A DNA stretch of 32,000 nucleotides from Candidatus Saccharimonadota bacterium (GCA_002952755.1 CP025011.1:1080001-1112000); one strand, 5' to 3'; counted from the first letter of the stretch, positions 1,155 to 31,382 are shown. Program-made: numbers and translations. Notes: a model not told the origin generated them from the sequence alone.

Positions 1155-1164
1155 CATACATATT

Positions 1165-3070: not shown

Positions 3071-3194
3071 CCATATTCACATTGTAACGTGGTACGCGAT
3101 CGAATAAAAACAACCCAGCTGAACGCTTACCTTGCGAAGGTAGGGCCGCACATATTACTATAGGGATATACTGTTTTAGAAGGTGGGCCTCCCG

Positions 3195-4016: not shown

Positions 4017-4028
4017 TAACGACGCCGG

Positions 4029-4134
4029 AGCGACCCCCAGCATGCTCTTGGGTAGAGCGTTACACGCAGGCCGACCTCAGGTCGGTCTGGTTGCACTACG
4101 CTTGACTCTACCCAAGAGCATGCTGGGGGTCGCT
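4029..4134 (+). ncRNA. Candidate structured RNA, copy 1: 29-bp perfect stem around a conserved 60-nt core
   Basis: 4029-4057 pairs perfectly with 4106-4134. The core 4052-4111 matches 25073-25131 except in the apical loop. G:U-compatible pairs favour the + strand. Function and transcription are unverified. Confidence 0.45.
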
Positions 4135-4179
4135 TGACCAGGTTGCGCAAGATGATAGGTGTGATACCGTATAAATGCT

Positions 4180-4584
4180 ATGTTTAGCCTGATCAAAAAA
4201 TTTGAGAATAACCGCGTATTCAGCGAAGGCGAAGCGTGGACATTGTTCCGGCTCGCTGCTATTGGGGAAGGCTGTGGCTGGACGCTGCTCATTTCCGGTA
4301 TTCTAAGCACGCGCTTTCTTGTGCACGGCAATAATATCCCCGTACTGCTGGCCGGACAACTACACGGTATGCTCTTTTTTCTCTATGCTCTCGCAGCACT
4401 TGGACTCTATCCCAGCCTGCACTGGTCGCGTAAAAGGGCACTTGTTGCTCTCATCGCCAGCGTGCCACCGTTCGGCTCGCTCTTGTTTGAACAATGGGCC
4501 CGCTATAGAGCCGAAAGGGAACAGCTGACCACATATAGATACTGCCTAGTACTCGTGGCTCTAGCAAGTGAAGGACGGTCATAA
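4180..4584 (+). CDS. DUF3817-like integral membrane protein
   Basis: FRLAAIGEGCGWTLLISG ... AGQLHGMLFFLYALAA fits the remembered DUF3817 pattern (f..vA..EG ... G..HG.lF..Y). It has four hydrophobic segments. Confidence 0.6.
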   Translation: MFSLIKKFENNRVFSEGEAWTLFRLAAIGEGCGWTLLISGILSTRFLVHGNNIPVLLAGQLHGMLFFLYALAALGLYPSLHWSRKRALVALIASVPPFGSLLFEQWARYRAEREQLTTYRYCLVLVALASEGRS

Positions 4585-7034: not shown

Positions 7035-7155
7035 AGTTGCTCCTTCTTCGTTACTCATATCGATTATCAAACCCGCATAGGCAATAACCCTCTGCCGTAA
7101 AGTATCCTTATTGTACCCCACTAACCAGGGTGTCTGGCATTTCCCGACAAAACGC

Positions 7156-7184
7156 TTGCAATATTAGACCACACGGTCTAATAT
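7156..7184 (+). promoter_or_regulatory. Promoter of the TetR gene (TTGCAA-17 nt-TAATAT), apparently leaderless
   Basis: TTGCAA at 7156-7161, a 17-nt spacer, then TAATAT at 7179-7184. ATG 7191 follows 6 nt later with no SD. Confidence 0.5.
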
Positions 7185-7185
7185 T
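7160..7185. promoter_or_regulatory. Perfect palindromic operator (AATATTAGACC-ACAC-GGTCTAATATT)
   Basis: Two perfect 11-bp inverted half-sites are separated by 4 bp. The site covers the spacer and -10 of the adjacent TetR promoter and lies in the divergent intergenic region shared with the HAD gene. Confidence 0.7.
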
Positions 7186-7190
7186 GGTCT

Positions 7191-7811
7191 ATGCAGTCAG
7201 GAGACACATCTCTCACCCGCACCCAGCTTGCCCGTCGCCAGGATATTCTCTCGGCAACCGTCAGAGTCATTAACCGTGACGGCTACCATGCGGCATCGGT
7301 TGAAAGAATCGCGAAAGACGCACACACCACAAAGAGCACGGTGTTGTACCACTTTAAATCCAAAGACGCTATCTATGCGGCGCTCGTGGGAACAATATTT
7401 GAGGATGGCGCCAAGTATATGGCACCCCAGATTCTGGCAGCCGGAAATTTTCGCGACAAATTGCGGGCATATATTGCCTCTAATCTGCAATATATCGCCG
7501 AACACGCTGATCGTATCGCCGCATTACATCAAATCGAAAAAAATAGTACCCGCGCCGCTTTCGAAGCCGGCTCAAATCGTATGCAAAACGACGCCCCGGT
7601 TCAGTGGCTCCAGCAGATGCTATGCGAAGGCCAGCAAGCAGGTGAGTTTGACACATTCGACCCCCTCACGCTTGCACTCGTTATTCGTTCCACAATCGAT
7701 AGCGCCTCATCTTACTTCGTTACCCATCCATCGTTCGACATTCCCACGCATATCCAGCAAGTTGTCGCCCTGTTCGACAAAATAGTAGCGCCTGTAGGGG
7801 GGAACCCATGA
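7191..7811 (+). CDS. TetR/AcrR family transcriptional regulator
   Basis: The N-terminal HTH ARRQDILSATVRVINRDGYHAASVERIAKDAHTTKSTVLYHFKSKDAIY is typical of the TetR_N domain. Length is about 200 aa. Confidence 0.85.
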   Translation: MQSGDTSLTRTQLARRQDILSATVRVINRDGYHAASVERIAKDAHTTKSTVLYHFKSKDAIYAALVGTIFEDGAKYMAPQILAAGNFRDKLRAYIASNLQYIAEHADRIAALHQIEKNSTRAAFEAGSNRMQNDAPVQWLQQMLCEGQQAGEFDTFDPLTLALVIRSTIDSASSYFVTHPSFDIPTHIQQVVALFDKIVAPVGGNP

Positions 7812-9317: not shown

Positions 9318-10175
9318 CTATGCCGATTCTTGATCAATCATGCGACGTATTGCCTTTAACACTTCTCGCGTAATCGGTCCGCAACCATCAGATATAGTAA
9401 TATCATCTATTCGCGTGACAGGGTATGCAAGCAAGCTTGAGTTCGTTGCGAAACATTCGTCCATATCCTTAATATCAGATAGATGAATGAAGGTCTCGTT
9501 TACTGGAATATGCATGGCTTGTAGAGCCAATATCGCTTTTTGACGCATGATACCGCCGAGAACGTTATCAGTAGGCGCCGTCATTACAACACCAGATTTG
9601 ATGAAGAAGACATTATTAACGGCCGCCTCATAGACTGTGGGATCCTTTTCGGTGCCTATGAGCAATACGTCCATAATTCCCGTGTGCTTCAGTTTATTCC
9701 GCGCATAAAGGGAAGTTGTGTAATTAGTTGATTTTATCCTGGGCAATTGTCGTGGTGCTGAGAATGTCGCAAAAGCAACTCCTCGATCATATATGTCGGA
9801 GTCAATAGGTTTACAATAATTAATAATCAATATTAGTGAATTATCACGACCCGGAGATAAAGTATCTTCGCTAATACCCCCCGTAAGCAATACACGTACA
9901 TATATGTCCTGATCTGGATTCTTTTTGAGGGCATCTTCGAAAATATCCTCTAATTCTTTACGGGAGCACGGCATGGGAAGCTGAAATGCCTTTGCCGATT
10001 CAAAAAAACGATCCAAATGATCCTTGAGCCAAACAAAATTACGATTATGGCTGCGAACAAAATCAAAAACACCATAGCCTCTTAAAATGGTAAGATCAAA
10101 GACCGATAACGTTAGATCCTCGGCCTGAACCCAAGTCCCATTTATATAGTGGATATTTTCGTTATGTATTACCAT
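9318..10175 (-). CDS. PLP fold-type IV aminotransferase (branched-chain / D-amino-acid aminotransferase or ADC-lyase family)
   Basis: DLTILRGYGVFDF, YVRVLLTGG, a candidate catalytic Lys in PRIKSTNYTTSL, and EAAVNNVFFIKSG all match class IV aminotransferase landmarks. 285 aa. Confidence 0.75.
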   Translation of the reverse strand: MVIHNENIHYINGTWVQAEDLTLSVFDLTILRGYGVFDFVRSHNRNFVWLKDHLDRFFESAKAFQLPMPCSRKELEDIFEDALKKNPDQDIYVRVLLTGGISEDTLSPGRDNSLILIINYCKPIDSDIYDRGVAFATFSAPRQLPRIKSTNYTTSLYARNKLKHTGIMDVLLIGTEKDPTVYEAAVNNVFFIKSGVVMTAPTDNVLGGIMRQKAILALQAMHIPVNETFIHLSDIKDMDECFATNSSLLAYPVTRIDDITISDGCGPITREVLKAIRRMIDQESA

Positions 10176-10184
10176 ACGGATTAT

Positions 10185-10949
10185 TTAGATTTGCCGAGGG
10201 ACCTCTGTAAATATTGGTATGCTTGCCATAGGACGCCCACTATCATTCCATTGGCCTTGCAATCTTAGAACTTCTTCGTCACCCGTAACTATTGGTGTTT
10301 TTGGTGTAAAGTTGCCGTTTAAGTCATGGATTTGCATTCCAGGTATCCATAATTCAGGTGCGTTCCAGCCGATACGCCTAGTGAGATCTGGATTATGCGC
10401 GAGTAATGCCAGCAATTCAACACCAGGTGCCGTCGCACGATCTCGCACTAAAAAGGGTGCAGAGCCGTCGCCGACATAAGCATCAATATCTATTCTACTT
10501 GAGGTTATCTCCCCGGCTGGACGTGACAAAATCCTTTGCCCTTCATACAGATGACGCTCACTGTTCGCATGGAACGGAGTCCCTTTTGGAAGATTTTCAT
10601 CGATAGCCAGTAGCATCTTTCTAGAATCGCCATCTGGTACAAACGATGATTCTTGGTCGACCGTACCTTCGAAATTCCTCGCTACGATACTCCATAAGGC
10701 TTGCGCTGTCTTAGCGGTCGACGAGAGGTGGGGTGTAATTACTGTTACTGGCGTTTGACCCACCTCTTGATGATGCCTCTCCTCTAGAGCACGAATGGTG
10801 TCCGCATCAACATGTGTAGCCCTCTCTAAAAGACCCATGGGGACTAAACCGTCAGTAGCCCAAGCTCTAATATTCTCAAGTTGCTGGTCGACACTAATCG
10901 GCTCCCAATCATGAAGATCAGAAAAAGTTGCGTATTCCTCTATAGCCAT
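10185..10949 (-). CDS. Hypothetical protein (255 aa), possible N-terminal HTH
   Basis: The start at M47 of the track ORF (ATG 10947-10949) follows a TTGACT-17-GATAGT promoter by 7 nt. The longer start would overlap the divergent gene. LVPMGLLERATHVDADTIRALEER loosely resembles an XRE-type HTH. It contains no Cys and I recognise no enzyme motif. Confidence 0.5.
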   Translation of the reverse strand: MAIEEYATFSDLHDWEPISVDQQLENIRAWATDGLVPMGLLERATHVDADTIRALEERHHQEVGQTPVTVITPHLSSTAKTAQALWSIVARNFEGTVDQESSFVPDGDSRKMLLAIDENLPKGTPFHANSERHLYEGQRILSRPAGEITSSRIDIDAYVGDGSAPFLVRDRATAPGVELLALLAHNPDLTRRIGWNAPELWIPGMQIHDLNGNFTPKTPIVTGDEEVLRLQGQWNDSGRPMASIPIFTEVPRQI

Positions 10950-10956
10950 GCAGGCT

Positions 10957-10985
10957 ACTATCGCAAAGCGCTTTAGCTTAGTCAA
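10957..10985 (-). promoter_or_regulatory. Promoter of the minus-strand operon (TTGACT-17 nt-GATAGT)
   Basis: On the - strand, TTGACT is at 10985-10980, followed by a 17-nt spacer and GATAGT at 10962-10957. The ATG is 7 nt downstream, so the transcript looks leaderless. Confidence 0.5.
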
Positions 10986-11136
10986 GCAGTTACTTGTGGA
11001 TAAAGTGCCGGAAAGAGATGTAGTTGGACTGGCTTGTGCCGGGGTTGAAAGGTGTAATGTTTCTGTTCCGATTCGGCGTAGGAACATCCTTCATTTTGGA
11101 GTAGTATTGTCTTTAGCAAAAATTGAAGGCAGTAAT

Positions 11137-13383
11137 ATGACTGAATCTTTTCGCGATCAAATGCTTTCCGGGCAATCCGAAGTGTATGCGGATTTGCAAT
11201 CTATTTGGAATCAGAAACGAGGTCGGCCACCGATTGACACAGAACCCCAATTCTCTTTAGCGGTATGTTTGGCAAGTCCACAATTTGCCGTTGATGACTT
11301 TGCAGATAATATGGTTTCCCATCTAGCCAATACAGATCCAGAGACTATGTATCGTTGGTCTAAGGAATGGGGCCAAGCACGCATTGCACTCGCGCCCGGT
11401 CAAGATCGCTTTGTGATGGTGGATACTCAAGGAGAGGATTCAAAGAGGTATTCGCCCATCTTCACGCGGGCGAAATGTCGTCCCTCTGAAATGATGGCCG
11501 CTAAAAGGGAGTTGGTAGAAAATGCGATTACTATAGTTATCAACGATGACGAGCCGGTCAGTATGGAAGGGGCAGTTTTACAAGTTGAACGTATGGTCGA
11601 TGAAGCTGTATGGACAATATGCAATGGCATACAAGAAACAGAACAGGTACCTGGAGCGGCTGCATATAGTCGAGCGGTAGAATACGTGCAAAAAAGAGGT
11701 CTAAACATTGCATATGCAACAGCCAATACTATTCTAGATTTAAAATCGAGCCTCCCTGATGCCCCAGTTCGTCTCTACGGAGACATTCATAAGCAAAGCA
11801 CAGTGCCTCCCATTATTGGGATTATTCTATACGGTGGTTTGCCTGTTGGTGCGGAGATCAAGTACCCTAAAGCTCAATCAGATAAAGAGGCCATTCAATC
11901 AGACTGCCTAGAAAATCATTCTATTATCGAGCTCGCCGATTCAGAGGATATTGTCGCTAACCTATCGATTACTTTAGGTAAGCGATTACATGCAGGCCAC
12001 CTGTTTATGTTTGTAAAAGCATGGTCGGCATTGAGAGGCAGCGATCGTGCAAGCATGTGTGTTGAGTTTAATGATACCGGGCCGCAGATAGATGCCATGC
12101 TCGAAGTAGCAGCAAGCGAGACAGGAAAAAGTGTCGAGTTTGTAGCTGCCGCCATATCGGCAGGCTACTATGCATTAAAAGAGGTAGAAAGCTGGTATGG
12201 ACGGCGCAATAAAGATCCCGTTGGCATGTATTATGTTCCGCGCGCAGAACCACTACTGTCCATGAGCACTCAAGCCGAAGAAATGCACCGACTACTGCAA
12301 TCTACATTCCCTAATATACCTATGCGCACCTACACAAGTAGCACTACCGATTATTCGCACGTATTATCTCATTCTGATTATAGTTGGCGATCTACAGGGT
12401 TCGAAGTTATGGATGGCCACGTTCTAGCTAAGAGGGGAGGGACTACGGCTCTACTCGCTAGGATGGGTTTTCTTGACAGGGTAGCGAGGGAGAATCCCGA
12501 ATCAAAACTAGTATATATAGACTCTTCGCCAACTATTGCTACGGCTACGCGATTGTCTGAACGTATCATCGGGTATAAGCCAGAGATAGTAAAAGGGGCT
12601 GCACTGGGGTTTGATTTTGATATTCATTCTGGATCATCGCCACGGGACGATATTACCATTGCTCAATTTCTGGATTGGTATCATCAAGAGGTAAACGACG
12701 ATGAGGAGCAGCTCGCACTTGATCTAGAGTATATGATGACCTTTATGCCATTGGCATGTCCGAAGGATGATCCGGAAGCATTCTATAACTTTGCCAATCT
12801 TGAGGGTTTGAGGCGAGCAATTGCAGTCAGTCATAGCGAAAGACTAGGTTTTCTAAAAGATATTGCAACATGTGCTTTTCCAGTTCTCCCAAATGATGAA
12901 GGAATAGCCTTTCGGGAAGGAGCGCCAAAAGCTGAACGAGTGGCGATAAAGAAGATTCTGCGTTCGGCACTTGGACAGTTAAAAAACCAACATCCCCATG
13001 TTTATAAAGCAAGAGACCTTGATTTTGCATTCATCCCTCCGGGGTATCTTCATGAAGAGCTCACTTATTTAGCTAGTGGAAATCTTTTGGCTGGTGAATC
13101 AATAAGTATAGATGCCCCTACTGGTGTTGCCATTGACCCGACCTTGATTAAATTGTTACAAGCACAAGGCTACACATCCATAGATAAATTACAGCATGCC
13201 GCTCACTTGATGCTAGCCAGAGACATCTCCTTTCAGTTCCAGCTGACACCTTACCAACTACTGTTCAAAAATCTAGTTAGCATCGTGACACACGTATCGG
13301 CCTTAGGTACCGCATACCAACGGGCATACGAATTCTTGAAAAGGTCCAGGTTATGGGAGGTACCTAATCATCATGAAGTATAG
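11137..13383 (+). CDS. Atypical arginyl-tRNA synthetase-like class I aaRS homologue with about 270-aa unknown N-terminal region
   Basis: LGKRLHAGHLF aligns to the ArgRS HIGH region (AKEMHVGHLR in E. coli, from memory). VEFNDTGPQIDAML aligns to NHVGDWGTQFGML. LVYIDSSPTIATATRLSERIIGY aligns to the YVVDxxQxxHF...ARKAGY block. The start at ATG 11137 is preceded by GAAGG. Confidence 0.5.
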   Translation: MTESFRDQMLSGQSEVYADLQSIWNQKRGRPPIDTEPQFSLAVCLASPQFAVDDFADNMVSHLANTDPETMYRWSKEWGQARIALAPGQDRFVMVDTQGEDSKRYSPIFTRAKCRPSEMMAAKRELVENAITIVINDDEPVSMEGAVLQVERMVDEAVWTICNGIQETEQVPGAAAYSRAVEYVQKRGLNIAYATANTILDLKSSLPDAPVRLYGDIHKQSTVPPIIGIILYGGLPVGAEIKYPKAQSDKEAIQSDCLENHSIIELADSEDIVANLSITLGKRLHAGHLFMFVKAWSALRGSDRASMCVEFNDTGPQIDAMLEVAASETGKSVEFVAAAISAGYYALKEVESWYGRRNKDPVGMYYVPRAEPLLSMSTQAEEMHRLLQSTFPNIPMRTYTSSTTDYSHVLSHSDYSWRSTGFEVMDGHVLAKRGGTTALLARMGFLDRVARENPESKLVYIDSSPTIATATRLSERIIGYKPEIVKGAALGFDFDIHSGSSPRDDITIAQFLDWYHQEVNDDEEQLALDLEYMMTFMPLACPKDDPEAFYNFANLEGLRRAIAVSHSERLGFLKDIATCAFPVLPNDEGIAFREGAPKAERVAIKKILRSALGQLKNQHPHVYKARDLDFAFIPPGYLHEELTYLASGNLLAGESISIDAPTGVAIDPTLIKLLQAQGYTSIDKLQHAAHLMLARDISFQFQLTPYQLLFKNLVSIVTHVSALGTAYQRAYEFLKRSRLWEVPNHHEV

Positions 13384-15654: not shown

Positions 15655-17598
15655 ATGAAACCACACACTATAAATCGTAGTGCGGCACTGCGCGCGCAGC
15701 GGCGCAATAAAGAAGATGCCGAACGCATTGTCAGCCACTATACCAGCACCAAAGCACGGCCGCAGGCCACTAACGTGCCCTATTCGCATGACCTACTAAA
15801 GCTTACTTTCTTAGGTGGCCTGGACGGGGTCGGCGAAAAGAATATGGCTATCTTGGAATGGCAAAACGACGCTCTCGTGCTCGATTGCGGCAACAATCTA
15901 GGCGTTGATCTGCCAGGCGTTAACTACGAAATATGCGATCCCAGTTATCTGCAAAGCATCCGACATAAAGTTCGTGCGTATGTTATATCGCACGGCCATC
16001 TCGACCATATGGGAGGCTTACGACATATCGTGCCGCAAGTGCCTGCACCGATATACGGCTCGCCATTCACGCTTGGTGTAGTAGCGAAATCTTTTGCCGA
16101 CGCTGCATCGGAAACCGGGCAGGACTTTGCACCCAAACTCATACCAATGCAGATCGACAATCATGAACGGCTCAAAATAGGCAGTTTTTTCGTAGAGCTT
16201 ATTCGCGTCACCCATTCAATTCCCGAGCCAACTGCTGTTTGTATCGACACGCCCGTCGGCCGAGTAATTGCCACCGGCGACTTTCGGCTCGACCCAGAAC
16301 CACTCGACAACCTACCAACTGATACAAACCGCCTGGCTGAACTGGGAAGTCAAGGGGTGTTGCTTCTGCTCAGCGAAAGCAGCTACGCGAACAGTGAAGG
16401 ACGCACTCCACCCGAGCATACTCTGCAGCAAAGCTTCTACGATGTCATAGAGCAAAGCCCGGGCCGCATCTTCGTCACCGTCTTTTCCAGTAATATTAAC
16501 CGCATCCAGATGGTTATCAACGCTGCGGTGAGGGCAGGACGCACAGTGGCTCTCGACGGACGGAGCATGCTGGGGTTTAGCGAAATCGCCGTTCGGCAGG
16601 GTATTCTCAAAATTCCCAAAGGCATGGTCCTACCTATGCAGCAGACAGCTTCGGTTGCCGATGATAAACTGCTTATCATGTCGACTGGCGGACAAGGGGA
16701 GCCAGGCGCAGCCTTGCAACGTATGAGCGAGGGCGAGCACAAATACATCAAACTAAAGAGCGGTGACACGGTGGTCATTAGCTCTACACCGATTCCAGGC
16801 AACGAAATACGCTATGATCAACTGAGCAATAACCTGGCCAGGAAGGGTGTGCACCTATTCCGTCATCCGACGCATGAGCTGGATGGCTGTGGGCCGCTGC
16901 ACGTCTCCGGACATGCTAGGCGCGAAGAAATGCGCGAGATGTTGCAACTCACCAAGCCACGATTCTTTATACCGGTCCACGCTGGCGCACTTAGGCGTCG
17001 TTACCATGCCGACATCGCCCTACAGGAAGGCTGGTCACGTTCCAGCATACTTCTTCCCAATAATGGTGAGAGCGTCCTACTGAGTGCCGATACTATGAAG
17101 ATAGGCCCCACAGTGTCGTATGGTAGCTTATTGGTTGACTCCAACGGCAACCTGGTGAGCAATGTCGTCGTCAAAGATCGACTACTATTAGCGAACGAGG
17201 GCATTATAGCCGTCGTACTCACCGTCGACAAAGCGACAGGCCGTCTGCTGACCAGTCCCGATATCATCAGCCGCGGATTCATTAATATGCGCGACAACGA
17301 AGCGCTTATGAATGACTTCCGATCGGAACTGCGCCGGGCAACCGAACAGCGCTTCAAGCGTATCGACCTCGATCGCTTTAAAGCCGAACTTCGTGATCAT
17401 ATGACTCAGTTCTTGTTTGACAGCACAGGGCGTAGCCCTCTAGTTATTCCAGTGGTCAATCTTGTCGGCAGCACCAAATCTGTCAAAACTTCAGGTAAAA
17501 GCAAAGCAGCAGGCGTAACCGAACAGCTGGCCGAAAAAGAGCACGCACGCTTCCAGCAGATGCGTGCCCGTTTACTTGGTCAGGACCAGATAAACTAG
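15655..17598 (+). CDS. rnj: Ribonuclease J (metallo-beta-lactamase / beta-CASP family)
   Basis: LTFLGGLDGVGEKNM...LDCG, the HxHxDH motif in ISHGHLDHMGG, beta-CASP region landmarks, and HVSGHA near the C-terminal part. AAGGAA RBS. There are N- and C-terminal extensions. Confidence 0.85.
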   Translation: MKPHTINRSAALRAQRRNKEDAERIVSHYTSTKARPQATNVPYSHDLLKLTFLGGLDGVGEKNMAILEWQNDALVLDCGNNLGVDLPGVNYEICDPSYLQSIRHKVRAYVISHGHLDHMGGLRHIVPQVPAPIYGSPFTLGVVAKSFADAASETGQDFAPKLIPMQIDNHERLKIGSFFVELIRVTHSIPEPTAVCIDTPVGRVIATGDFRLDPEPLDNLPTDTNRLAELGSQGVLLLLSESSYANSEGRTPPEHTLQQSFYDVIEQSPGRIFVTVFSSNINRIQMVINAAVRAGRTVALDGRSMLGFSEIAVRQGILKIPKGMVLPMQQTASVADDKLLIMSTGGQGEPGAALQRMSEGEHKYIKLKSGDTVVISSTPIPGNEIRYDQLSNNLARKGVHLFRHPTHELDGCGPLHVSGHARREEMREMLQLTKPRFFIPVHAGALRRRYHADIALQEGWSRSSILLPNNGESVLLSADTMKIGPTVSYGSLLVDSNGNLVSNVVVKDRLLLANEGIIAVVLTVDKATGRLLTSPDIISRGFINMRDNEALMNDFRSELRRATEQRFKRIDLDRFKAELRDHMTQFLFDSTGRSPLVIPVVNLVGSTKSVKTSGKSKAAGVTEQLAEKEHARFQQMRARLLGQDQIN

Positions 17599-18270: not shown

Positions 18271-19905
18271 CTATAGATTTGTTCTGAGCAAATAAGTAGT
18301 CACCGGGCCACTATCGGTTATACGCTCATCAACTTGTGTGTAGTAGGTATCGACAAATTTTTGCAAATCGGTATTGCTGTCGCGGGTATGAAAATCTATG
18401 TAATAGATAACTCCCATGCGCTTAAGTGTCTCATAATAGGGATGATCATCGACCACGGGAGGATCAAGGATGCTGTAACAGTTGAGATGGATGTGCCAAC
18501 AAGCAAAAAATGAGTCGCTAAAATCGTCCGATATTACTTTCGAGCCAGCGGGAATAACGCTCTCTAGGGCAAGCGAAGTAGTGTAATGATACTTGTCCAG
18601 GTACTGATATCGCACAATATTTTGTATGGCGGCGGTCATCGTAATAGCGACGGCGATTGCTCCGCATACAAAAATTTGCCACGTGCCAAGCAGTTTGCGT
18701 TGCTGCAACCTCGACAGCCACAAGGCGCCGCCCGCGACTGTCAGGAACAGACCACCCCATAGATATCGCCCTTCAAGCAGCACTAATGAGTAACCCGCAA
18801 TCATAATGCCGAGTAGATACGCAAATAACACATACTCCTGTTTACGCTCTTTCTTTTGCTCCAGCGCGCCACACAACAGGCCAAATAGACCAAGTAGCCC
18901 CACTGGCCCAAACGCCATCCATGAACTACTTGCCTCGGCTAGATTATGGCCAATGACGCGCTGCCAGAAAAACGTAAAGTCCTTCCCCGAATCCAAAGGC
19001 GACCACCTAGGGAAAAGACGTGTCAGTTGGGTAGGGTCTTCCCAAATGCTCATGGCCGAACTATTCGGCGGAGCGAGCGGCCCCATATGCGTCATTGCAC
19101 CGAGGCCTAAACCGGCGGGACCGTAGGTGACGTGATCGTAAGCGCCAGCGTTATTAATCGTTGGCGTGTGGTATTTGCAGGAAATAGCAATGATAAACGG
19201 CGCTACCAGCAGGGTAAACATTGCGAGCATGGGCAAATACCTCTTGAGCGTTATCTTCCATTTTCGCTCGTCCTTATACCACCACTGCCACAGGCCAATC
19301 GACCCGATAACGCCTATAAATAAGAAAAAGCCAAACCCTTTCGCAAAGAACATACAGGCGCCGAGTGCGCCCACTATCAGACCCATCTTAAGCGTTGGGC
19401 GAGACAAAAAAGTATTCAATGTGAGGCCAAAAAGAAGCGTAGCAAGCGCTATGAGGACATCAGGAGTAACCGGGCCAACCGTAGACCATTGCAGTAGCAT
19501 ACTCCCCAGCGCGAGCGATATAAGAAGCAGGATAAACCGGCTCACATTGCGTATAGACAAATAGGCATACAATGTCACTAATATTCCCAAGCTTCCTAGT
19601 ACTGCAATAATTTTGGCAGCCGAAATCATGTTGGCATGCAGCCACACAGCGGGCACGAGCAGCCACGATAATAATGGACCCCAGTAGCCATTGAGCGCGT
19701 GGCTAACGTCCCCATGAGCGTATTTGTAAGCGATAGTGAAATAAGAGGCCGCATCCGGGTTGAGTTGATACTGATACCAACTGAGTGACAGCATGATACC
19801 TACGGTAAGAAACACCAGACAAAGCAGTATAAATAATGCGTGTCGCCTAATGACTTCTACCATTTGACGTATCCAGTTTGTTGCAAACCACATATGTGTT
19901 TTCAT
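18271..19905 (-). CDS. GT-C fold glycosyltransferase (family 39/83, ArnT/PMT-like)
   Basis: 544 aa with at least 10 hydrophobic helices. The first loop carries NPDAASYFTIAYKY, resembling the acidic D-x-x-x-Y loop of polyprenyl-phosphate-sugar dependent GT-C enzymes. The soluble C-terminal domain is about 90 aa. Confidence 0.6.
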   Translation of the reverse strand: MKTHMWFATNWIRQMVEVIRRHALFILLCLVFLTVGIMLSLSWYQYQLNPDAASYFTIAYKYAHGDVSHALNGYWGPLLSWLLVPAVWLHANMISAAKIIAVLGSLGILVTLYAYLSIRNVSRFILLLISLALGSMLLQWSTVGPVTPDVLIALATLLFGLTLNTFLSRPTLKMGLIVGALGACMFFAKGFGFFLFIGVIGSIGLWQWWYKDERKWKITLKRYLPMLAMFTLLVAPFIIAISCKYHTPTINNAGAYDHVTYGPAGLGLGAMTHMGPLAPPNSSAMSIWEDPTQLTRLFPRWSPLDSGKDFTFFWQRVIGHNLAEASSSWMAFGPVGLLGLFGLLCGALEQKKERKQEYVLFAYLLGIMIAGYSLVLLEGRYLWGGLFLTVAGGALWLSRLQQRKLLGTWQIFVCGAIAVAITMTAAIQNIVRYQYLDKYHYTTSLALESVIPAGSKVISDDFSDSFFACWHIHLNCYSILDPPVVDDHPYYETLKRMGVIYYIDFHTRDSNTDLQKFVDTYYTQVDERITDSGPVTTYLLRTNL

Positions 19906-24391: not shown

Positions 24392-24421
24392 ACAAAAATC
24401 CCCCAGCTATGGCACTGGGGG
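24392..24421 (-). terminator. Intrinsic terminator of the 24447-24707 gene
   Basis: CCCCCAG (24400-24406) pairs with CTGGGGG (24415-24421). On the - strand the stem is followed by ATTTTTGT. Confidence 0.65.
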
Positions 24422-24446
24422 ATAGTAGAGTTCGGCTCCGTGCGGG

Positions 24447-24707
24447 CTACAGCGTCATGTCTACGAGTGTCCAGGAGCGTTCGCTGTTATTAAACTGCAG
24501 ACGGTAGTCGCGACTGCCATCGGTCATATCAAAGACCTGGATGAGCTGCTGGCCCTTGCGAACTAAGTAGCGCAAACCGTCCATGAAGGTGTATTCGCGG
24601 CCTTCGTATTCCATACGGCGAGGGTAGCTCTTTATGTTTGGGCCATCATTGGTAAAGTACAATTCGGGGATAAAAACTTCTTTGCTTACAGTGATACGCT
24701 GATCCAT
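24447..24707 (-). CDS. Small hypothetical protein (86 aa)
   Basis: GGAG lies 9 nt upstream of the ATG on the - strand and a terminator lies just downstream. No motif recognised. Confidence 0.55.
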   Translation of the reverse strand: MDQRITVSKEVFIPELYFTNDGPNIKSYPRRMEYEGREYTFMDGLRYLVRKGQQLIQVFDMTDGSRDYRLQFNNSERSWTLVDMTL

Positions 24708-25049
24708 AGGTCAAGCTCCTATTCTTTGATTTAGAGTTATTTTAAGAGGTCTGTTCGTGAGGACACGCCAGTGAACGGATTTAAAAGAGTGCTTTTAGCG
24801 GCAGGTACGACACCGTTCGTCTCGTTTGCTTCTAGCTAAAACACTTGCTTGATTCTTAGGGATTAACAGTGACGCTTAAGCATAAGACTCAGTGTGTATG
24901 TGTTCCCAAACTCTCGTATGTAAGCCTGTGAGTAAGAAGGCCCCAGGGGCCAGCACACACATTGCTACTGCTTAGTATAAACCTGCCGGAAAATCGGATG
25001 CAATAGTTTGTCCGTAGTTTCTTATACACCGTTTTTCCTGCGGTTTCAC

Positions 25050-25152
25050 GGCAACTACCCCACCCCCTCCAAGTAGAGCGTTACACGCAGGCCGACTAAA
25101 GTCGGTCTGGTTGCACTACGCTTGACTCTACTTGGGGGGTGGGGTAGTTGCC
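25050..25152 (+). ncRNA. Candidate structured RNA, copy 2: 27-bp stem (one 2-nt bulge) around the same conserved core
   Basis: 25050-25078 pairs with 25126-25152. The core 25073-25131 is identical to 4052-4111 apart from the apical loop (TAAA versus CTCAG). The outer arms are unrelated to those of copy 1. Confidence 0.45.
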
Positions 25153-25209
25153 CAGCTCCCAGCTAAACGTGGGAAGCTGATTATACCGCAGTAATCAAAA
25201 AGGTGATAA

Positions 25210-25240
25210 TTGACCATTTCTTCAGCAAAAACCGTATAAT
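25210..25240 (+). promoter_or_regulatory. Promoter of the LCP gene (TTGACC-19 nt-TATAAT)
   Basis: TTGACC at 25210-25215 and TATAAT at 25235-25240. ATG 25249 follows 8 nt later with no SD. The spacer is slightly long. Confidence 0.45.
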
Positions 25241-25248
25241 GGACCAGT

Positions 25249-26475
25249 ATGATGCACCGTAAAAAGGCGAAGTCTGTGACGCGCAACGAACGACCGGCAA
25301 ATCTGTTGGACCTCAATCGTTCGTTACCCAACTACACCTACCATCCCGGCGCTAGTCCAGCCATGAAGCGTGTGGCCGAACCGCCGAAACGTCGTTTTTC
25401 GTGGAAGAAATTCGCCAAATGGTCGGGTGTTTCTATCGGCATAGGCGTATTGCTTGTTGGCGGCTGGGTTGGCTGGAAACTGCTCCATAACGAACTGAAG
25501 ATTTTTGGCTGGAAGGGCATAATTAGCATCGTCAAGCCGGTCAAACTGAAAGGGGAAGATACCGGACATGTGACAATTCTGCTGGCTGGCAACTCGGCAG
25601 ACGATCCGGGCCATAACGGCGCTGATCTCACTGACTCGATTATGCTCATCAGCCTAAATACTACTACCAAAACCGGTTTTATGCTGAGCGTCCCACGCGA
25701 CTTATACGTTACAATACCAAACCTTGGATCAGGGAAGATAAATGAAGTATACGAAGACGGCGAACGGACCAAGTTTAGCCAGCCTGGCTATGCCGCCGAT
25801 GGCATGGGACTCCTCGAAGAAGTTGTCTCTCAGAACTTTAGCATTCCCATTAACTACTATGGGTTAGTCGACTATAGTGCCGTACGTCAAGCTGTTGACG
25901 CCTTGGGCGGCGTACAGATCAACGTTCAAAGCACCGATCCACGCGGCGTATACGACCCCAGCCCCGACCTCAGCAATAACTACCAACCACTCGTCAAGCT
26001 CACCAATGGCGTCCACACCTTAAACGGCACGCAGGCGCTCGGCCTGGCCCGGGCCCGCGGTGACGCGTACGGCGCATATGGATACGCCCAAAGCGACTTT
26101 ACGCGCACCCAATACCAACGCCAGGTGTTGCTGGCTATTAAAGACAAGGTGTTCTCATTGGGAACTCTGTCCAACCCCGTTAAGCTCGGTAATCTTTTTG
26201 ATTCGTTCGGCAGTAATGTCAAAACCGACATGACCTTGGCTGAAGTGAATCGCTTCTACTCGCTTACCAAAGATATCCCCAACGCGAAGATTGCTTCTGC
26301 CGGCCTCAATAATGCCAACGGCAAAAACCTGCTCGCAGGTTACACGACCGGCTCAGGCCAAAGTGCACTCGTCCCCCAGCTCGGTGCCGACAACTATAGC
26401 GACATCCAAGCATTCGTAAATCAATTGTCTAATCCGCCTGCAACCACTCAAAGTACACCCACGACAAAGAGGTAA
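25249..26475 (+). CDS. LytR-CpsA-Psr (LCP) family cell-envelope polymer ligase
   Basis: An N-terminal TM anchor, then VTILLAGNSADD...DLTDSIMLISLN...FMLSVPRDLYVTIP...GKINEVYEDG, which matches the LCP core motifs. Confidence 0.85.
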   Translation: MMHRKKAKSVTRNERPANLLDLNRSLPNYTYHPGASPAMKRVAEPPKRRFSWKKFAKWSGVSIGIGVLLVGGWVGWKLLHNELKIFGWKGIISIVKPVKLKGEDTGHVTILLAGNSADDPGHNGADLTDSIMLISLNTTTKTGFMLSVPRDLYVTIPNLGSGKINEVYEDGERTKFSQPGYAADGMGLLEEVVSQNFSIPINYYGLVDYSAVRQAVDALGGVQINVQSTDPRGVYDPSPDLSNNYQPLVKLTNGVHTLNGTQALGLARARGDAYGAYGYAQSDFTRTQYQRQVLLAIKDKVFSLGTLSNPVKLGNLFDSFGSNVKTDMTLAEVNRFYSLTKDIPNAKIASAGLNNANGKNLLAGYTTGSGQSALVPQLGADNYSDIQAFVNQLSNPPATTQSTPTTKR

Positions 26476-27200: not shown

Positions 27201-28031
27201 TTATGCAGCGCCTTTGTGGGTAAACAACACGCGCAGTATACCGCCCATCACTAGTACACAGCCGGTTAGCAGAACAGGCACAAAACCAGTGCGCGTTCGA
27301 TCATCTAAAAAGAGCAAACCTAAAATCGTAGGTACAAGCGTCTGAGCTGCGACCATCGCTGCGTTAATGATCGTGGCCGAACCTCGTTGCAAGGCCATCG
27401 TAAAAAGCAGGATGCCGATCAGCGCATACACCGCCAGAGCGACAGCAGTTGGAGTGTATACTACATGCCAATAGGGGCGGGGGATACTAAGTACCCGGCC
27501 ACAAATCGACGTGCCGCCGAACCCTAAGCCACTGAGCAAAGCCAGCCCAATCGTAGCTTTGCTGCTCCGTATGCGCACTAGAAAGAGCGCGGCAAGCGCT
27601 AAGACGATTGGGCCGCCTACGACCACCCAAGTCATGACGACCGTCAGACTTGGACCCGGCGAAGGCTGCGCAGCTGCTCCCAAGAGTGTTAGGCCAGTGA
27701 GCACCAAGCCCACCGCCCAGTAGGTTTGACTACGCATACGATGTTTAAGCACAAACCGGTCAATGAGCGCCGTCGCCACCACACTCGACGCGATTACGGA
27801 TTGCGCCAGAAAAAGTGGCAACGTTCGCACGGCGAATAACTCGCTGGCGCCACCGATGAGATCCAACACAATACTAAAAAAATAGAGCTCATTTTGTATC
27901 AAGCGCACTAATAACCCGAGACTAAGTGAGGGGGCCTGTTTTTCACGGCTGGCGGTCATTTTCTGCAAAATCGTTGCCACACTGTTGCACAGCGCGCAAA
28001 GAAAAGCTGCGGCTAAAGCAGGATAAAACAT
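27201..28031 (-). CDS. DMT-superfamily (EamA/NIPA-like) membrane transporter
   Basis: About nine or ten hydrophobic helices. I chose the start at M13 of the track ORF (MFYPALAAAF...); the first 12 codons look non-native. The family call is by topology and general resemblance. Confidence 0.5.
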   Translation of the reverse strand: MFYPALAAAFLCALCNSVATILQKMTASREKQAPSLSLGLLVRLIQNELYFFSIVLDLIGGASELFAVRTLPLFLAQSVIASSVVATALIDRFVLKHRMRSQTYWAVGLVLTGLTLLGAAAQPSPGPSLTVVMTWVVVGGPIVLALAALFLVRIRSSKATIGLALLSGLGFGGTSICGRVLSIPRPYWHVVYTPTAVALAVYALIGILLFTMALQRGSATIINAAMVAAQTLVPTILGLLFLDDRTRTGFVPVLLTGCVLVMGGILRVLFTHKGAA

Positions 28032-28111
28032 CTCTTTGTAGTGTAACAGAGAAGCACAAGCGCACATGCTTCAAAAAGCACCCAAAGGATCCCGCATGCT
28101 ACACTAAGCAC

Positions 28112-29143
28112 ATGCTTCGCACGCTTACTGCCGCCTTTCTTTTAGCTGTGATGCCCAGCAGCAGTAACTATGTATTACATTCCTATGATTTCGGCAACGG
28201 GTCTGGGACAGCAAGTGGTACAACCTACAAAATGAACGGCACGGTTGGACGACCGTCCGGTGCGCTCAGTAGCGCGACATATATGCTGCCGGCTGGCATT
28301 AAGGCGTCCACCTCTGTATCAGCACCGGCCGCGCCGACATTCATAAACGCGAGCAACAACTACGACCGTTTACACCTTACACTCGCCACTAGCTCACTCC
28401 CCAGTGATACGAAATATTTGATAGCCATTAGTAGCGATGGCTTTGCCACAGCTAAGTACGTACAAACGGACAACACTATTGGCAGCGTAGTCAATATCAA
28501 CAATTACCAAGTGTATGCGGCGTGGGGCGGTGCAAGTGGTTTTTCTATACTCGGCTTAGCCAGCAACACTACCTATAGCGTCAAAGTTGCCGCGCTACAG
28601 GGAAGTAACACCGGCAGTGGCTTTGGACCAATTGCCAGCGCCGCCACCGTGTCGCCAACCGTCACGTTGGCGCTTTCCACCTCGCTCACTAGTACACCAC
28701 CATTCACCACTACTTTTAGCAGCTTGGCCCCAGGCACGCCAATAAACGGGAATGCCACACTTATTGCTGCCATCACCACGAACGCTATAAATGGAGGAGC
28801 GTTGGCGATATATGATCAATTTGGCGGACTCAAGAGTACGGCCGCCAATTACACATTGGCCTCGGCCAGCGCCAACTTATCTGTGGCGCAAAATGGTTAC
28901 GGGGCGCAAGTGACCACGGCTACGCAAACCAGTGGTGGGCCAATAGTTTCGGCAAGCCCCTATAATGGCTCAGGCAATACTGTTGGTGCGCTCACCACCA
29001 GTCAACAAACGCTCGCATCATTTAGTAATCCTATTACCAATGGAAATATTACGACGGCATTAATTGCTAAAACAGATAGTTCCGTGCCATCAGCGGGCGA
29101 TTATGCCGACACCGTAACGCTCTCTCTGTCGCCCCTCTTTTAG
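28112..29143 (+). CDS. Secreted surface protein: signal peptide, FN3-like module, C-terminal beta-rich domain (paralogue of 29229-30287)
   Basis: The start at M63 of the track ORF (MLRTLTAAFLLAVMP...) lies 6 nt after TACACT. LGLASNTTYSVKVAAL looks like the end of an FN3 module. TTNAINGG...GLKSTAANYTLAS and the terminal GDYADTVTLSLSPLF are shared with the next protein. Confidence 0.55.
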   Translation: MLRTLTAAFLLAVMPSSSNYVLHSYDFGNGSGTASGTTYKMNGTVGRPSGALSSATYMLPAGIKASTSVSAPAAPTFINASNNYDRLHLTLATSSLPSDTKYLIAISSDGFATAKYVQTDNTIGSVVNINNYQVYAAWGGASGFSILGLASNTTYSVKVAALQGSNTGSGFGPIASAATVSPTVTLALSTSLTSTPPFTTTFSSLAPGTPINGNATLIAAITTNAINGGALAIYDQFGGLKSTAANYTLASASANLSVAQNGYGAQVTTATQTSGGPIVSASPYNGSGNTVGALTTSQQTLASFSNPITNGNITTALIAKTDSSVPSAGDYADTVTLSLSPLF

Positions 29144-29228: not shown

Positions 29229-30287
29229 ATGTTACGCACAATTAGACAACAAAATACGATAAAAAAGGTGAGCTTTTACTCCCTTTCTGCACTGCTTGCC
29301 TTCTCGGCTGTTGCTTTGGTGATTCAGCCTGAAGCGGCACATGCGGTAACGCTGAATAAAGTGCTCGTCCGTTTCGACCGCTTGCAGATTTCGCAAGGCA
29401 CCACTGGCACTGTTTGTGCGCAGCCTACCTCAACTGCAACCGAAGCAAGTGTGCAAGTTGTCTTCCCAACAGGTTACACGCTCGGGGCAGCTGGCACATT
29501 CACAGTAAACACAACCAACTTGAACTGGCCAACGGGCGGGACAGCCTGGACAGGAATCGGCACCGCGAATAACGTCACTTCGCAAACTGTTACATTCCCC
29601 AGCGGCGATCTTGCCAGCACGAGCACGCTTTACTGTTTTAACTGGACAAACACGGCTGCAGTAACCGTTAAGTCGAGCGCTACCAGCAGTAATGCCGGTA
29701 CGGTTACAACCCAAACCAGCGTACCAGCGCCCATAGATACTGGCTCCTATAGCACCGTGAGCTTGGCCAGCGACCAGATTGGCGTCTCGGCTTCTGTACC
29801 CCAGGCATTCACTTTTGCCCTTAGCAGTACAACCGACACGCTTGGTGCACTTTCAACGTCGAGCGTCGTCAGCAGCAGCTCTGCACCGACTATAACGGTT
29901 AATACCAACGCCAAGAATGGCTGGACGGCTTGGGGGCAGGATGCCAACACTGGCTTAAAATCGGTAAGCGCTGGCAACTACACCATCGCCTCAAAAACCC
30001 CAGGCACTAATAGCACGCTCGTTGCAGGGACCGAATTCGCTAACCTTGGTGTAACCACTTCACAAACCGGCGGCACCGGCACGCTGGCTGCCGACGCTGC
30101 ATTCCTTGGCGGCGGCACCGGCAAAGGTGGCGGCCTTGACACGACACTCCGCACCATCGCCAGCTCAAACGGCACTGCCAATAACGCTGTTTTGACGCTT
30201 ACCAATAACGCTGTCGTCAGCGCCACCACTCCCGCAGCCACCGATTATAGTGATACCATCACCATGGTCGGCGCGGCATTGTTTTAG
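29229..30287 (+). CDS. Secreted surface protein, paralogous C-terminal domain (WxL-like?)
   Basis: GGGGGA RBS. The signal peptide ends AAHA/V. NTNAKNGWTAW...GLKSVSAGNYTIAS and the terminal TDYSDTITMVGAALF parallel the previous protein. Confidence 0.55.
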   Translation: MLRTIRQQNTIKKVSFYSLSALLAFSAVALVIQPEAAHAVTLNKVLVRFDRLQISQGTTGTVCAQPTSTATEASVQVVFPTGYTLGAAGTFTVNTTNLNWPTGGTAWTGIGTANNVTSQTVTFPSGDLASTSTLYCFNWTNTAAVTVKSSATSSNAGTVTTQTSVPAPIDTGSYSTVSLASDQIGVSASVPQAFTFALSSTTDTLGALSTSSVVSSSSAPTITVNTNAKNGWTAWGQDANTGLKSVSAGNYTIASKTPGTNSTLVAGTEFANLGVTTSQTGGTGTLAADAAFLGGGTGKGGGLDTTLRTIASSNGTANNAVLTLTNNAVVSATTPAATDYSDTITMVGAALF

Positions 30288-30329: not shown

Positions 30330-31382
30330 ATGTCCAACCATGTTTCACAATGGTTGCGTATGGGTGGTGTATGGCTATTAGGAGTTTTAGCCATACTCTA
30401 CTCGTTCTACCCGGCAACGGCTCAAGCAACAGGCAGTGATTTTAATATACAGGTGGCGCCTTCGCCCCTCACAATCACACTCACACCTGGTCAAATGCAG
30501 AGCACCAGCCTGGTAGTGCGTAACTTTTCCAGCCACGACGAAACGCTTCGGCCCAGTCTAAGCGGTTTTCGTATTGATAGTGTTAGCCAGAAGATTACCC
30601 TCTTGAGCGCTCCGCCGGCCAATATGGCTAACTGGGTACACTTTAAACAGTCGGACCTAACGCTGGCACCAGGCACCGGCAAAAACCTAGATATCATTTT
30701 TGACACCCCAAAGGATGTCGGCTTTAGTTACGCAGCCGCCATTACGCTTACTCGCGCCAACACAGTCGCGAGGGCCGATGCAACCAACCTGAGAGGGGCA
30801 GTAGCAGTGTTTTGCCTTGCCAACATTAATCGTCCGGACGCCAAAAGCGCAGTAGCCATCACTAGTCTGAGCTCAGATAAATCATCCTACGAATTCCTAC
30901 CTGCAACATTTCATCTTAGCTTAAAGAATACCGGCAACGTGATTAGCCAACCTACCGGAACTATCTTCATACAGCGCTCATTTTCTGATGCGACGCCAAT
31001 TGCCTCGCTGCCCATTAACAGCACCGGCGGTTACGTTCTACCCGATACAACCCGCAGTTTTTCGTCAAGTTGGCAAAATGGTTTTCCAGCGTATGTTGCC
31101 AACCCGGCGCTTTCGGGCCAATCGGCCACTAATCACTTAAATTGGAACTGGTCTCATCTCAGCCAGCTCCGCTTTGGGCGTTATGTTGCGAAAGCAGTCA
31201 TCATATACAACGATGGGCATAGCGACGTGCCCGTGATTGCCAGCACATCATTTTGGGTGATTCCATGGCGCCTTATAGGGTTCGGGCTGCTGCTGCTCAT
31301 CGTCTTAGGCACCGGCCTTTACGCATGGGGTCGTTTCGCCTTTAAAAGCGTGCAGAAAGTGCAACGTCGTGGGCATAAATAA
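30330..31382 (+). CDS. Cell-surface protein, DUF916/DUF3324-like, with C-terminal TM anchor
   Basis: A signal peptide, then DFNIQVAPSPLTITLTPGQMQSTSLVVRNFS (the pattern of the DUF916 N-terminus), a second Ig-like half, and the C-terminal WRLIGFGLLLLIVLGTGLYAW plus a basic tail. Confidence 0.55.
   Translation: MSNHVSQWLRMGGVWLLGVLAILYSFYPATAQATGSDFNIQVAPSPLTITLTPGQMQSTSLVVRNFSSHDETLRPSLSGFRIDSVSQKITLLSAPPANMANWVHFKQSDLTLAPGTGKNLDIIFDTPKDVGFSYAAAITLTRANTVARADATNLRGAVAVFCLANINRPDAKSAVAITSLSSDKSSYEFLPATFHLSLKNTGNVISQPTGTIFIQRSFSDATPIASLPINSTGGYVLPDTTRSFSSSWQNGFPAYVANPALSGQSATNHLNWNWSHLSQLRFGRYVAKAVIIYNDGHSDVPVIASTSFWVIPWRLIGFGLLLLIVLGTGLYAWGRFAFKSVQKVQRRGHK

Follow-up and report, generated by a model that had tools for sequence, protein, structure and literature searches.

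A hairpin repeat with a conserved asymmetric core and a sequence-free stem in a Saccharimonadales genome and a distant relative

A hairpin repeat of ~105 bases is present in at least three copies in a genome of the Saccharimonadales (TM7) and in one copy in a distant relative. Three modules are conserved in the four members: a clamp of 6 bp at the end of the stem, another of 6 bp at its inner side, and an asymmetric core (about 48 nt). A fourth module, the 17-bp stem interior, is free and keeps only its length and Watson-Crick pairing. We tentatively regard the element as a small dispersed hairpin repeat, REPIN/MITE-like with an inverted layout and probably acting in transcripts as a 3' hairpin, a reading to which we give somewhat less than an even chance. 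It is placed with the REP, REPIN and MITE kind because it has multiple copies with near-identical cores, a patchy distribution at non-orthologous sites, empty sites in relatives, a location in short spacers and no coding capacity. The layout itself is the opposite of that of REPINs and MITEs: what is conserved is the asymmetric centre and the 6-bp clamps at the ends, set around a stem of fixed length and free sequence. The genomes of Saccharibacteria and other CPR bacteria are very small and contain few repeats, and our literature searches found no description of dispersed hairpin elements in Saccharibacteria or the CPR and nothing relevant on hairpin repeats or MITEs in Saccharibacteria or Patescibacteria.

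An earlier note on the window (the whole 32-kb stretch of DNA analysed) had described a hairpin at 25050-25152 as the second copy of an element; its 27-bp stem with a 2-nt bulge was confirmed, as was a core in common with copy 1 (Table 1). Positions 25050-25067 pair with 25135-25152 (18 bp, 100%) and positions 25070-25078 with 25126-25134 (9 bp) around a 47-nt interior, leaving T25068 and C25069 as the bulge. Three of the G:T pairs that the note had named (G25091:T25106, G4070:T4086 and G4028:T4135) are present, while the fourth, T25068:G25136, simply draws the bulge in another way. Except around the apical loop (CTAAAG versus CCTCAGG), the 59-nt core at 25073-25131 equals 4052-4111, and one 19-mer from it has two occurrences in the window where chance would give 0.02. 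As RNA, copy 2 folds with -72.9 kcal/mol on the + strand (z = -7.7) and -72.6 kcal/mol on the - strand (z = -7.9), and copy 1 with -88.7 and -86.5 kcal/mol, respectively (z about -10, down to -10.7). For both copies, ssDNA folds of the two strands differ by <1 kcal/mol; across RNA and ssDNA runs the z-scores ranged from -7.7 to -14. Both halves of these hairpins are reproduced by independent short-read assemblies of 4-5 samples, and the hairpins are therefore not assembly artefacts.

Table 1. Positions of the hairpin copies, their modules, neighbouring promoter-like sites and other long hairpins (window coordinates unless a related locus is named).
Feature	Position	Strand	Basis
Copy 2 of the hairpin element, 103 nt	25050..25152	+	stem pairing and covariance model R1
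Copy 2, 5' outer clamp GGCAAC	25050..25055	+	alignments A1 and A3
Copy 2, 5' variable stem interior, 17 nt, TACCCCACCCCCTCCAA, holding the bulge T25068 C25069	25056..25072	+	
Copy 2, inner clamp GTAGAG, partner 25126-25131	25073..25078	+	
Copy 2, asymmetric core: CGTTAC, apical helix 25088-25096/25101-25109 with G25091:T25106, then TGCACTACGCTTGA	25079..25125	+	
Copy 2, inner clamp CTCTAC	25126..25131	+	
Copy 2, 3' variable stem interior, 15 nt, complementing 25056-25072 except the bulge	25132..25146	+	
Copy 2, 3' outer clamp GTTGCC	25147..25152	+	
Copy 1 of the hairpin element, 106 nt, 29-bp stem, 100% complementary	4029..4134	+	
Copy 1, outer clamp AGCGAC/GTCGCT	4029-4034/4129-4134	+	
Copy 1, variable interior	4035-4051/4112-4128	+	
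Copy 1, inner clamp	4052-4057/4106-4111	+	
Copy 1, core	4058-4105	+	
-10-like element CCGTATAAA before the DUF3817 gene (context, not part of the hairpin)	4168..4176	+	read directly
-10-like element CCGTATAAT of the LCP gene (context, not part of the hairpin)	25234..25242	+	conserved in L016 and L038 without the hairpin
Putative promoter-like site TTATCA, 18-nt spacer, TATAAT, pointing into copy 2	25180..25209	-	consensus scan only
Long hairpin, 168 nt, -110.5 kcal/mol	2903-3070		
Long hairpin, 106 nt	L021 11171-11276		
Long hairpin, 107 nt	L030 9068-9174		
Long hairpin, about 105 nt	L022		
Long hairpin, 134 nt, arms only 81% complementary	L038 9658-9791		

Copy 3 lies ~2.6 kb past the end of the window and was rebuilt from the ends of the Logan contigs L032 and L036, its other half being recovered via the neighbouring beta-lactamase-like gene. 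Its arms are perfect over 23 bp, or 24 bp with one extra G:C pair, and two differences set its core apart from that of copy 1, a compensatory replacement of G:C by A:T within the inner clamp and a single T to C substitution. At each of the three copies, the Logan short-read contigs of this organism end precisely within the core (3041-4082, 4082-25097 and 25108 to about 34650 in window coordinates); of practical relevance, the hairpins thus break short-read assemblies of these organisms at predictable places. Neighbouring copies are 21 and 9.5 kb apart, so that the three lie within about 31 kb, and both strands of the intervening DNA carry many genes. Upstream of the window, a contig of 136 kb is unbroken and holds zero copies.

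A hairpin scan of 25 related loci returned one homologue, at L010 7733-7848, in another Saccharimonadales genus whose LCP is 64% identical to that of the window. It has 23-nt arms, lies 3' of the LCP gene and is inverted relative to both flanking genes. Relative to the copies of the window's genome, its inner clamp is altered by two compensatory pairs and its apical helix is replaced, with the internal-loop sequences kept. Like copy 2 it starts with TCACGGCAAC, the two sharing 10/10 nt in register (TCAC followed by the outer clamp GGCAAC; chance about 1e-6), of which 4 nt fall outside the stem, on one side only. No second copy was found within the 29.6-kb L010 contig. We built a covariance model, R1, from copies 1, 3 and L010; together with a fuzzy motif search of about 660 kb of Saccharimonadia loci, it yielded nothing beyond the four members. 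Searches with exact core patterns gave 0 matches in genome contigs and, in metagenome contigs, one chance match in a high-GC coding region and none that was genuine; a looser two-motif pattern gave 0 matches in viral contigs, and blastn of the core against plasmids and phages gave no match. Rfam scans of several kinds (at gathering thresholds, at E-value thresholds and with the element alone) returned nothing above threshold, the sub-threshold matches being to generic miRNA-precursor hairpin models only.

All four members follow one layout, an outer clamp of 6 bp, an interior of 17 bp, an inner clamp of 6 bp and the asymmetric core, with an arm length of 23 nt in each. The outer clamps read AGCGAC, GGCAAC, AACGAC and GGCAAC in copies 1, 2, 3 and L010, each with its complement (consensus RRCRAC/GTYGYY), and the inner clamps read GTAGAG in copies 1 and 2, ATAGAG in copy 3 and GGAGAC in L010. 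The 17-bp interiors are unrelated between copies (2-3/17 positions identical) and Watson-Crick complementary within each; by sequence comparison, that of copy 2 is related to neither of the other two in this genome nor to that of L010. Copies 1, 3 and L010 have arms with Watson-Crick pairs throughout, copy 2 having one 2-nt indel. While the arm interiors are unrelated, the cores are near-identical copies (93-100% identity). Each core, about 48 nt long with conserved unpaired CGTTAC and TGCACTACGCTT, contains a CGT:ACG pairing, an unpaired TAC facing TGCACT, an apical helix and a 3' bulge of CTTGA or CTTTTA. The apical helix varies in sequence and length among the four members; its 10 bp are unchanged among the three copies of the window's genome. 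Outside the stems, the 5' flanks are not uniform (TCAC, TCAC, ATAC(G) and GCCGG), the flanks of the four members hold no direct repeat or target-site duplication, and a conserved long terminal repeat is missing, RRCRAC/GTYGYY being all that the ends have in common.

Pair counts were taken on an alignment of copies 1, 3 and L010. Standard pairs fill 132/132 cells, and 28/44 pairs have changed on both sides, a count reached by 0/500 shuffles; with the partners slid by one column, pairing falls to 42-45%. For the outer helix, the changes are two-sided in 22/29 pairs and one-sided in none, with no G:U intermediates, and over all four members (about 85 bp) the outer stem has zero G:U pairs and zero mismatches. 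In the apical helix, one G:U pair (columns 42:67, A4) is kept in both the window and L010, and two more pairs have changed on one side only, to G:U or U:G. This helix thus behaves unlike the outer one.

These patterns bear on the main rival explanation, a dedicated structured RNA, either a ~105-nt + strand small RNA or a cis-acting element in envelope-gene transcripts, which we consider unlikely but deserving of real weight. A protein or a partner RNA would be the ligand of its conserved internal loops, with the long stem having no role other than to form a helix. Indeed, unpaired nucleotides are kept while the helices covary, one G:U pair is conserved between genera with two others arising by one-sided change, and the core folded alone as RNA is more stable on the + strand by 1.5-4.5 kcal/mol in all four members. 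The proposal that G:U pairs favour a + strand RNA thus holds, modestly, for the core; it does not extend to the whole hairpin, the two strands of which have equal energies. Moreover, R1 scores 95-120 bits on the top strand against 39-61 on the bottom (95.2 against 39.1 bits for copy 2; 119.9 bits for copy 1), a bias that is partly circular, the model having been built from top-strand sequences. The C-rich 5' arm and G-rich 3' arm, also offered as strand evidence, carry no strand information because the 5' arm of a perfect inverted repeat is the same whichever strand is read. Further points in favour of a structured RNA are a -10-like TAGTATAAA on the + strand at 24973-24981, ~70 nt upstream of copy 2 and conserved in the related loci L016 and L038, the co-orientation of copies 1-3 with the gene or promoter upstream of each, and the retention of an unrelated hairpin at an orthologous locus in L022 and L018. 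Against it, RNA-level selection alone would leave some G:U pairs or mismatches in the outer stem, the positions are non-orthologous between genomes and relatives exist that have no element, there is neither an Rfam family nor a U-tract terminator, and the L010 copy is antisense to both flanking genes. The proposed placement upstream of envelope genes was not borne out, copy 3 being flanked by a pair of convergent genes (its distance to their stop codons is 11 nt on one side and 43 nt on the other) and the L010 copy lying downstream of LCP; orientation relative to neighbouring genes is not fixed. Were the element a host RNA, it would represent a new RNA family adjoining cell-envelope genes.

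Orthologous sites in relatives bear on what was inserted. The spacer between LCP and the next gene measures 20-30 nt in L008 and L014 versus 191 nt in L010, and the spacer between the convergent genes for a 749-aa protein and the beta-lactamase-like protein measures 25 nt in L042 and 38 nt in L010 versus about 160 nt in the window's genome. None of the orthologous spacers in these distant relatives (20-38 nt in L008, L014, L010 and L042) holds a hairpin. At the level of sequence comparison, the unit that appears at a locus is thereby shown to be the whole hairpin, arms included, because the relatives have only these short, hairpin-free spacers at the same sites. The element is patchily distributed, at non-orthologous sites and in two distant genera.

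The same comparison speaks to an alternative raised in the earlier note, in which a 59-nt mobile core with GTAGAG/CTCTAC ends had inserted into the loops of older long hairpins, for example terminators, and which we now find hard to credit. The core boundary is indeed a 6-bp inverted repeat, and related genomes do contain long, perfect hairpins whose 15-20 bp stems enclose short loops of 0-21 nt. The arms, however, have a fixed length of 23 nt and related 6-bp clamps in all four members, with the ten-base match of copy 2 and L010 hardly expected by chance, and they have none of the A/T tracts that mark canonical terminators in these genomes. The orthologous spacers hold no hairpin of any kind, and about 660 kb of sequence yielded none that bears these clamps around an absent core.

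Near-identical cores combined with unrelated interiors, three of four members having arms as perfect as if freshly copied, could also mean that the stem interior is written anew in each copy, an explanation we regard as improbable. The interior would then be a 17-23 nt inverted target duplication (by fold-back or template switching primed at the core hairpin), or more broadly a set length of local or foreign DNA copied in inverted form, or else a programmable double-stranded guide segment, and the element a new mobile or guide-bearing hairpin of CPR bacteria whose ruler-type enzyme would read the core and act 23 bp away. The fixed 23-nt arms of all four members are in line with this, and the TCACGGCAAC shared by copy 2 and L010, 4 nt of which fall outside the stem, may represent a motif of the target site. 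However, the arms show no similarity to their own flanks, and BLAST of the arms against all sequences in the analysis gave only a 13-nt match in the RNase J gene (E = 0.08, about chance). There is no empty-site allele in any sample, copy 1 being present in every one, and the arms are identical across 4-5 metagenome samples, so that diversification is not ongoing. We know of no mechanism that gives a fixed-length inverted target duplication, and the arm divergence of the L022/L018 hairpin is compatible with neutral saturation.

Among known systems, REPINs and their RAYT transposases (PMC3116915, PMC3337134) offer several likenesses: a short, multi-copy, extragenic hairpin of about 100 nt that is thought to act as a folded single-stranded nucleic acid and leaves no target-site duplication. 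Length and pairing are all that is constrained in one part of the REPIN hairpin, where compensatory changes occur often (PMC3116915), as in our element, where 22/29 outer-stem pairs have changed on both sides with 100% pairing. The GTAG motif also opens the inner clamp of copies 1 and 2; unlike in REPINs it is not conserved here, reading ATAG in copy 3 and GGAG in L010. In REPINs, two REPs (~20-25 nt) in inverted orientation are the conserved parts and flank a free centre; our element keeps its centre and two clamps of 6 bp, and its free part is the mid-stem (17 unrelated bp). In addition, no RAYT gene, which in REPIN systems is a cognate single-copy Y1 transposase gene, is seen in the 32-kb window or roughly 25 kb of flanks, and the copy number appears low. 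Correia elements (CREE) and other bacterial MITEs (PMC2649163, PMC2229807, PMC10969869) resemble the element in their length of 100-150 nt, their intergenic position next to genes, their design as an inverted repeat with a conserved core and the long hairpin they form in transcripts, by which mRNAs can be cut by RNase III or can be stabilised or terminated; at Correia elements, RNase III cuts or protects (PMC2649163). Presence and absence relative to related genomes is likewise a MITE-like trait, the empty 20-38 nt spacers here being those of distant relatives. Correia terminal repeats, however, are 26 bp long and the same in all copies, with flanking TA duplications, whereas in our element 6 bp per end are conserved, the remaining 17 bp differ and no duplication is present.

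The element also recalls integron attC sites, which are folded, strand-specific hairpins of conserved structure and variable sequence directly 3' of ORFs. We consider it very improbable that the element is such a DNA recombination site, either attC-like at the 3' end of a cassette or an inverton with the arms as inverted repeats. In copy 2 and L010, the terminal AAC/GTT resembles the R''/R' boxes of attC, copies 1, 3 and L010 are 11-16 nt from stop codons, copies 1 and 2 lie at gene-order breaks relative to other genomes, and the element adjoins surface-polysaccharide genes, where invertons are common. Contrary to this, the window contains no integrase (IntI), attI site, cassette array or invertase, and the copies are 21 and 9.5 kb apart. 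The RYYYAAC...GTTRRRY signature is not matched either: CGGCAAC...GTTGCC of copy 2 and L010 agrees only in CAAC/GTTG, and copies 1 and 3 have GAC/GTC. Whereas attC stems are imperfect, the 29-bp stems of copies 1, 3 and L010 are perfect and have no extrahelical bases, and conservation of the centre with variation of the stem is the opposite of attC. With regard to an inverton, the core has a single orientation in all contigs from 4-5 samples (assembled contigs rather than reads), and a segment of 48-60 bp is too short for recombinase-mediated inversion, given the DNA looping that this takes. Across the larger ORFs of the window, Pfam and NCBIfam revealed no transposase, RAYT, integrase, invertase or recombinase. 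IS200/IS605-derived PATEs share with the element the lack of terminal inverted repeats common to all copies and of target duplications, an asymmetric hairpin readable by a strand-specific ssDNA enzyme and, in the form of TTAC 5' of the apical hairpin, a tetranucleotide. Unlike our element, with its single apical hairpin inside one stem, PATEs have distinct subterminal hairpins at their left and right ends, with no long stem around them; moreover, the 5' flanks here are not a fixed tetranucleotide, and no TnpA is seen.

Finally, REP-type 3' stabilisers and U-tract-less ('I-shaped') terminators compare with the element as very stable hairpins 11-16 nt past stop codons with no U-tract, in one case between convergent genes. 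They differ from it in being simple stems with small loops that do not form a family with a conserved 48-nt asymmetric core. An intrinsic terminator was rejected as an explanation: canonical examples have a GC-rich stem, a short loop and a U-tract, whereas all copies lack a T-run after the stem on the + and the - strand alike, and the terminator scan did not call the element. Canonical U-tract terminators are present in the same genome, as at 24398-24423, where one serves the small - strand ORF 24447-24707. Copy 2 lies between this ORF and the LCP gene, and the earlier note was right that it is not the terminator of a called + strand CDS, the nearest one upstream ending at 24213 with the - strand ORF intervening.

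The LCP protein encoded downstream of copy 2 has relatives (47-72% identity) in Candidatus Saccharimonadales MAGs (TM7, CPR lineage) and is itself encoded on a contig of 1.45 Mb. Copy 1 begins 12 nt past the stop codon of a Wzy_C-like gene, upstream of the DUF3817 gene. The -10-like elements reported downstream of both copies, CCGTATAAA and CCGTATAAT, exist, although the latter is not part of the element, being kept where the hairpin is missing. Because CCGTATAA upstream of LCP is conserved in the hairpin-less L016 and L038, it is, on this comparative evidence, the promoter of the gene itself and outside the repeat; by analogy, CCGTATAAA may be the promoter of the DUF3817 gene. An outward promoter within the core was considered and rejected, TTGACT having no consistent -10 element at 17 nt. 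The consensus scan that gave the - strand site at 25209-25180 found 1 such site versus 1.4 expected in shuffles.

Within our preferred reading of a REPIN/MITE-like repeat, a putative trans-acting protein would read the asymmetric core in a folded single-stranded form, as ssDNA or RNA. The sequence-free 17 bp would serve as a spacer or ruler that holds the terminal clamps, the likely points of cleavage or joining, at a fixed distance from the core, and the copies would have been spread or duplicated by the activity of the same protein. If the element is mobile, this implies an enzyme that reads the folded core and acts at a measured distance. Short spacers near stop codons may hold the element because compact genomes tolerate insertions only there. 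Arm complementarity would be owed not to RNA-level selection but to a DNA-level process, such as hairpin-templated correction or the use of one arm as the template for the other. Any transcript entering from either side would contain a 29-bp hairpin with no U-tract, which, by analogy with the systems above, would most likely block 3' exonucleases, be cut by RNase III or insulate transcription units. This role in transcripts may be a by-product or a secondary use.

Several findings stand against the REPIN/MITE-like reading. Zero copies share arms, though inherited arms would be expected to be shared by some, and the interiors are saturated (2-3/17 identical) versus an apical helix whose 10 bp are unchanged in three copies. 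Inheritance followed by drift fits saturated arms only if the whole core is constrained in sequence or homogenised between copies. This odd pattern has two possible explanations: a constrained or homogenised core with arms perfected by hairpin-templated DNA correction, or arms made anew at each insertion, for which we found no support among the four members. In addition, the window has no transposase, the flanks no target-site duplication and the ends no conserved long terminal repeat, and only four members are known. The different hairpin family kept at an orthologous site in L022 and L018 hints that hairpins of this sort can serve the host.

Saccharimonadia genomes seem to carry long hairpins recurrently: others, with unrelated interiors and perfect outer stems of 19-21 bp, occur in the window and in related genomes, and L038 holds a further one whose arms are imperfect (Table 1). 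The hairpin at the orthologous site in L022 and L018 has core parts conserved above a background of 75-82% identity and arms that have fully diverged and still pair; accelerated evolution of these arms was considered and discarded, the background identity having proved to be only 75-82%. Several of these unrelated hairpins have nearly the same total length as the ~105-nt family.

Other long hairpins occur in related Saccharimonadia, with sequences of their own. Two related MAGs (loci L022 and L018) carry orthologous hairpin elements whose core shows no relation to that of the dispersed ~105-nt family under study. Between the two, the first 28 nt of the core are 89% identical and the last 10 nt 100% identical, against a background of 75–82%, while the arms of ~23 nt are nearly unalignable, each still being paired to its own partner. 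The L018 hairpin pairs imperfectly, and folds more stably on the + strand than on the - strand, by 7.7 kcal/mol. Long hairpins with unrelated interiors were also found in L021, L030 and L038, two of the three adjoining the LCP gene; those in L021 and L030 have almost the same total length as the family (103–108 nt). In L038, the closest relative, the hairpin occupies the spacer upstream of LCP, the same spacer that harbors copy 2 of the family in the window.

Hairpins and -10-like elements in the window and in related loci
Feature	Locus	Position	Length	Remarks
Orthologous hairpin	L022	15246-15350		
Orthologous hairpin	L018	~7143-7250		
Long hairpin	L021	11171-11276	106 nt	outer stem perfect, 19-20 bp
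Long hairpin	L030	9068-9174	107 nt	outer stem perfect, 19-20 bp
Long hairpin	L038	9658-9791	134 nt	arms only 81% complementary
-10-like (C)CGTATAAT	window	25234-25251		LCP
-10-like (C)CGTATAAT	window	4168-4182		DUF3817
-10-like (C)CGTATAAT	L016	9975-10003		
-10-like (C)CGTATAAT	L038	~9970-10003		

Only ~4–10 nt separate the -10-like element (C)CGTATAAT from the ATG that follows it, for LCP as well as for DUF3817; upstream of LCP the element is kept in relatives. This short distance, together with the conservation at LCP, suggests that leaderless or near-leaderless mRNAs are made in these genomes.

Upstream of copy 2, a non-coding block (24708-24980) adjoins a - strand ORF of 86 aa (24447-24707); the DNA sequence of this block is conserved between genera. 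The stretch, ORF included, aligned to L016 and L038 with 74% identity over ~535 nt, and a 59-nt portion (24919-24979) is ~80% identical in L012, L014 and L041 and 74% identical in L009 and L013. Within the block lie a conserved -10-like motif, TAGTATA, and, at 24939-24951, a small hairpin with covariation in its stem from genome to genome; comparison with Rfam gave no match. The block could represent an RNA not yet recognised, or a shared promoter or leader.

A distinct 168-nt hairpin, unrelated in sequence to the family, is located at 2903-3070 between divergent DoxX-like (-) and Wzy_C-like (+) genes. It has a perfect outer stem of 21 bp with inner stems nested within (RNA fold -110.5 kcal/mol, z = -14.4), and short-read contigs from several samples end inside it, at 3041 and 3064. 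BLAST revealed no further copy among loci L001-L035.

Five large ORFs of the window (1120-2463, 18271-19905, 27926-29143, 29229-30287 and 30330-31382) matched no Pfam or NCBIfam family. Another (10948-13383, 811 aa), which overlaps the start of a - strand ORF with no known function (10185-11087, 300 aa), gave only a weak, sub-threshold match to Prim-Pol.

Within the RNase J gene (15655-17598), AGAGCATGCTGGG at 16563-16575 perfectly matches 13 nt of the 3' arm of copy 1; with a BLAST E value of ~0.08 in the sequence set compared, this match probably arose by chance. Outside the window, ~3.9 kb past copy 3, the short-read contig L036 begins (positions 1-30) with TCTACTTGGG, 10 nt that also occur at the junction of core and 3' arm in copy 2. 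The start of this contig could mark where another repeat ends, or belong to a fourth copy of variant form; the 23 nt that follow end without the usual clamp.
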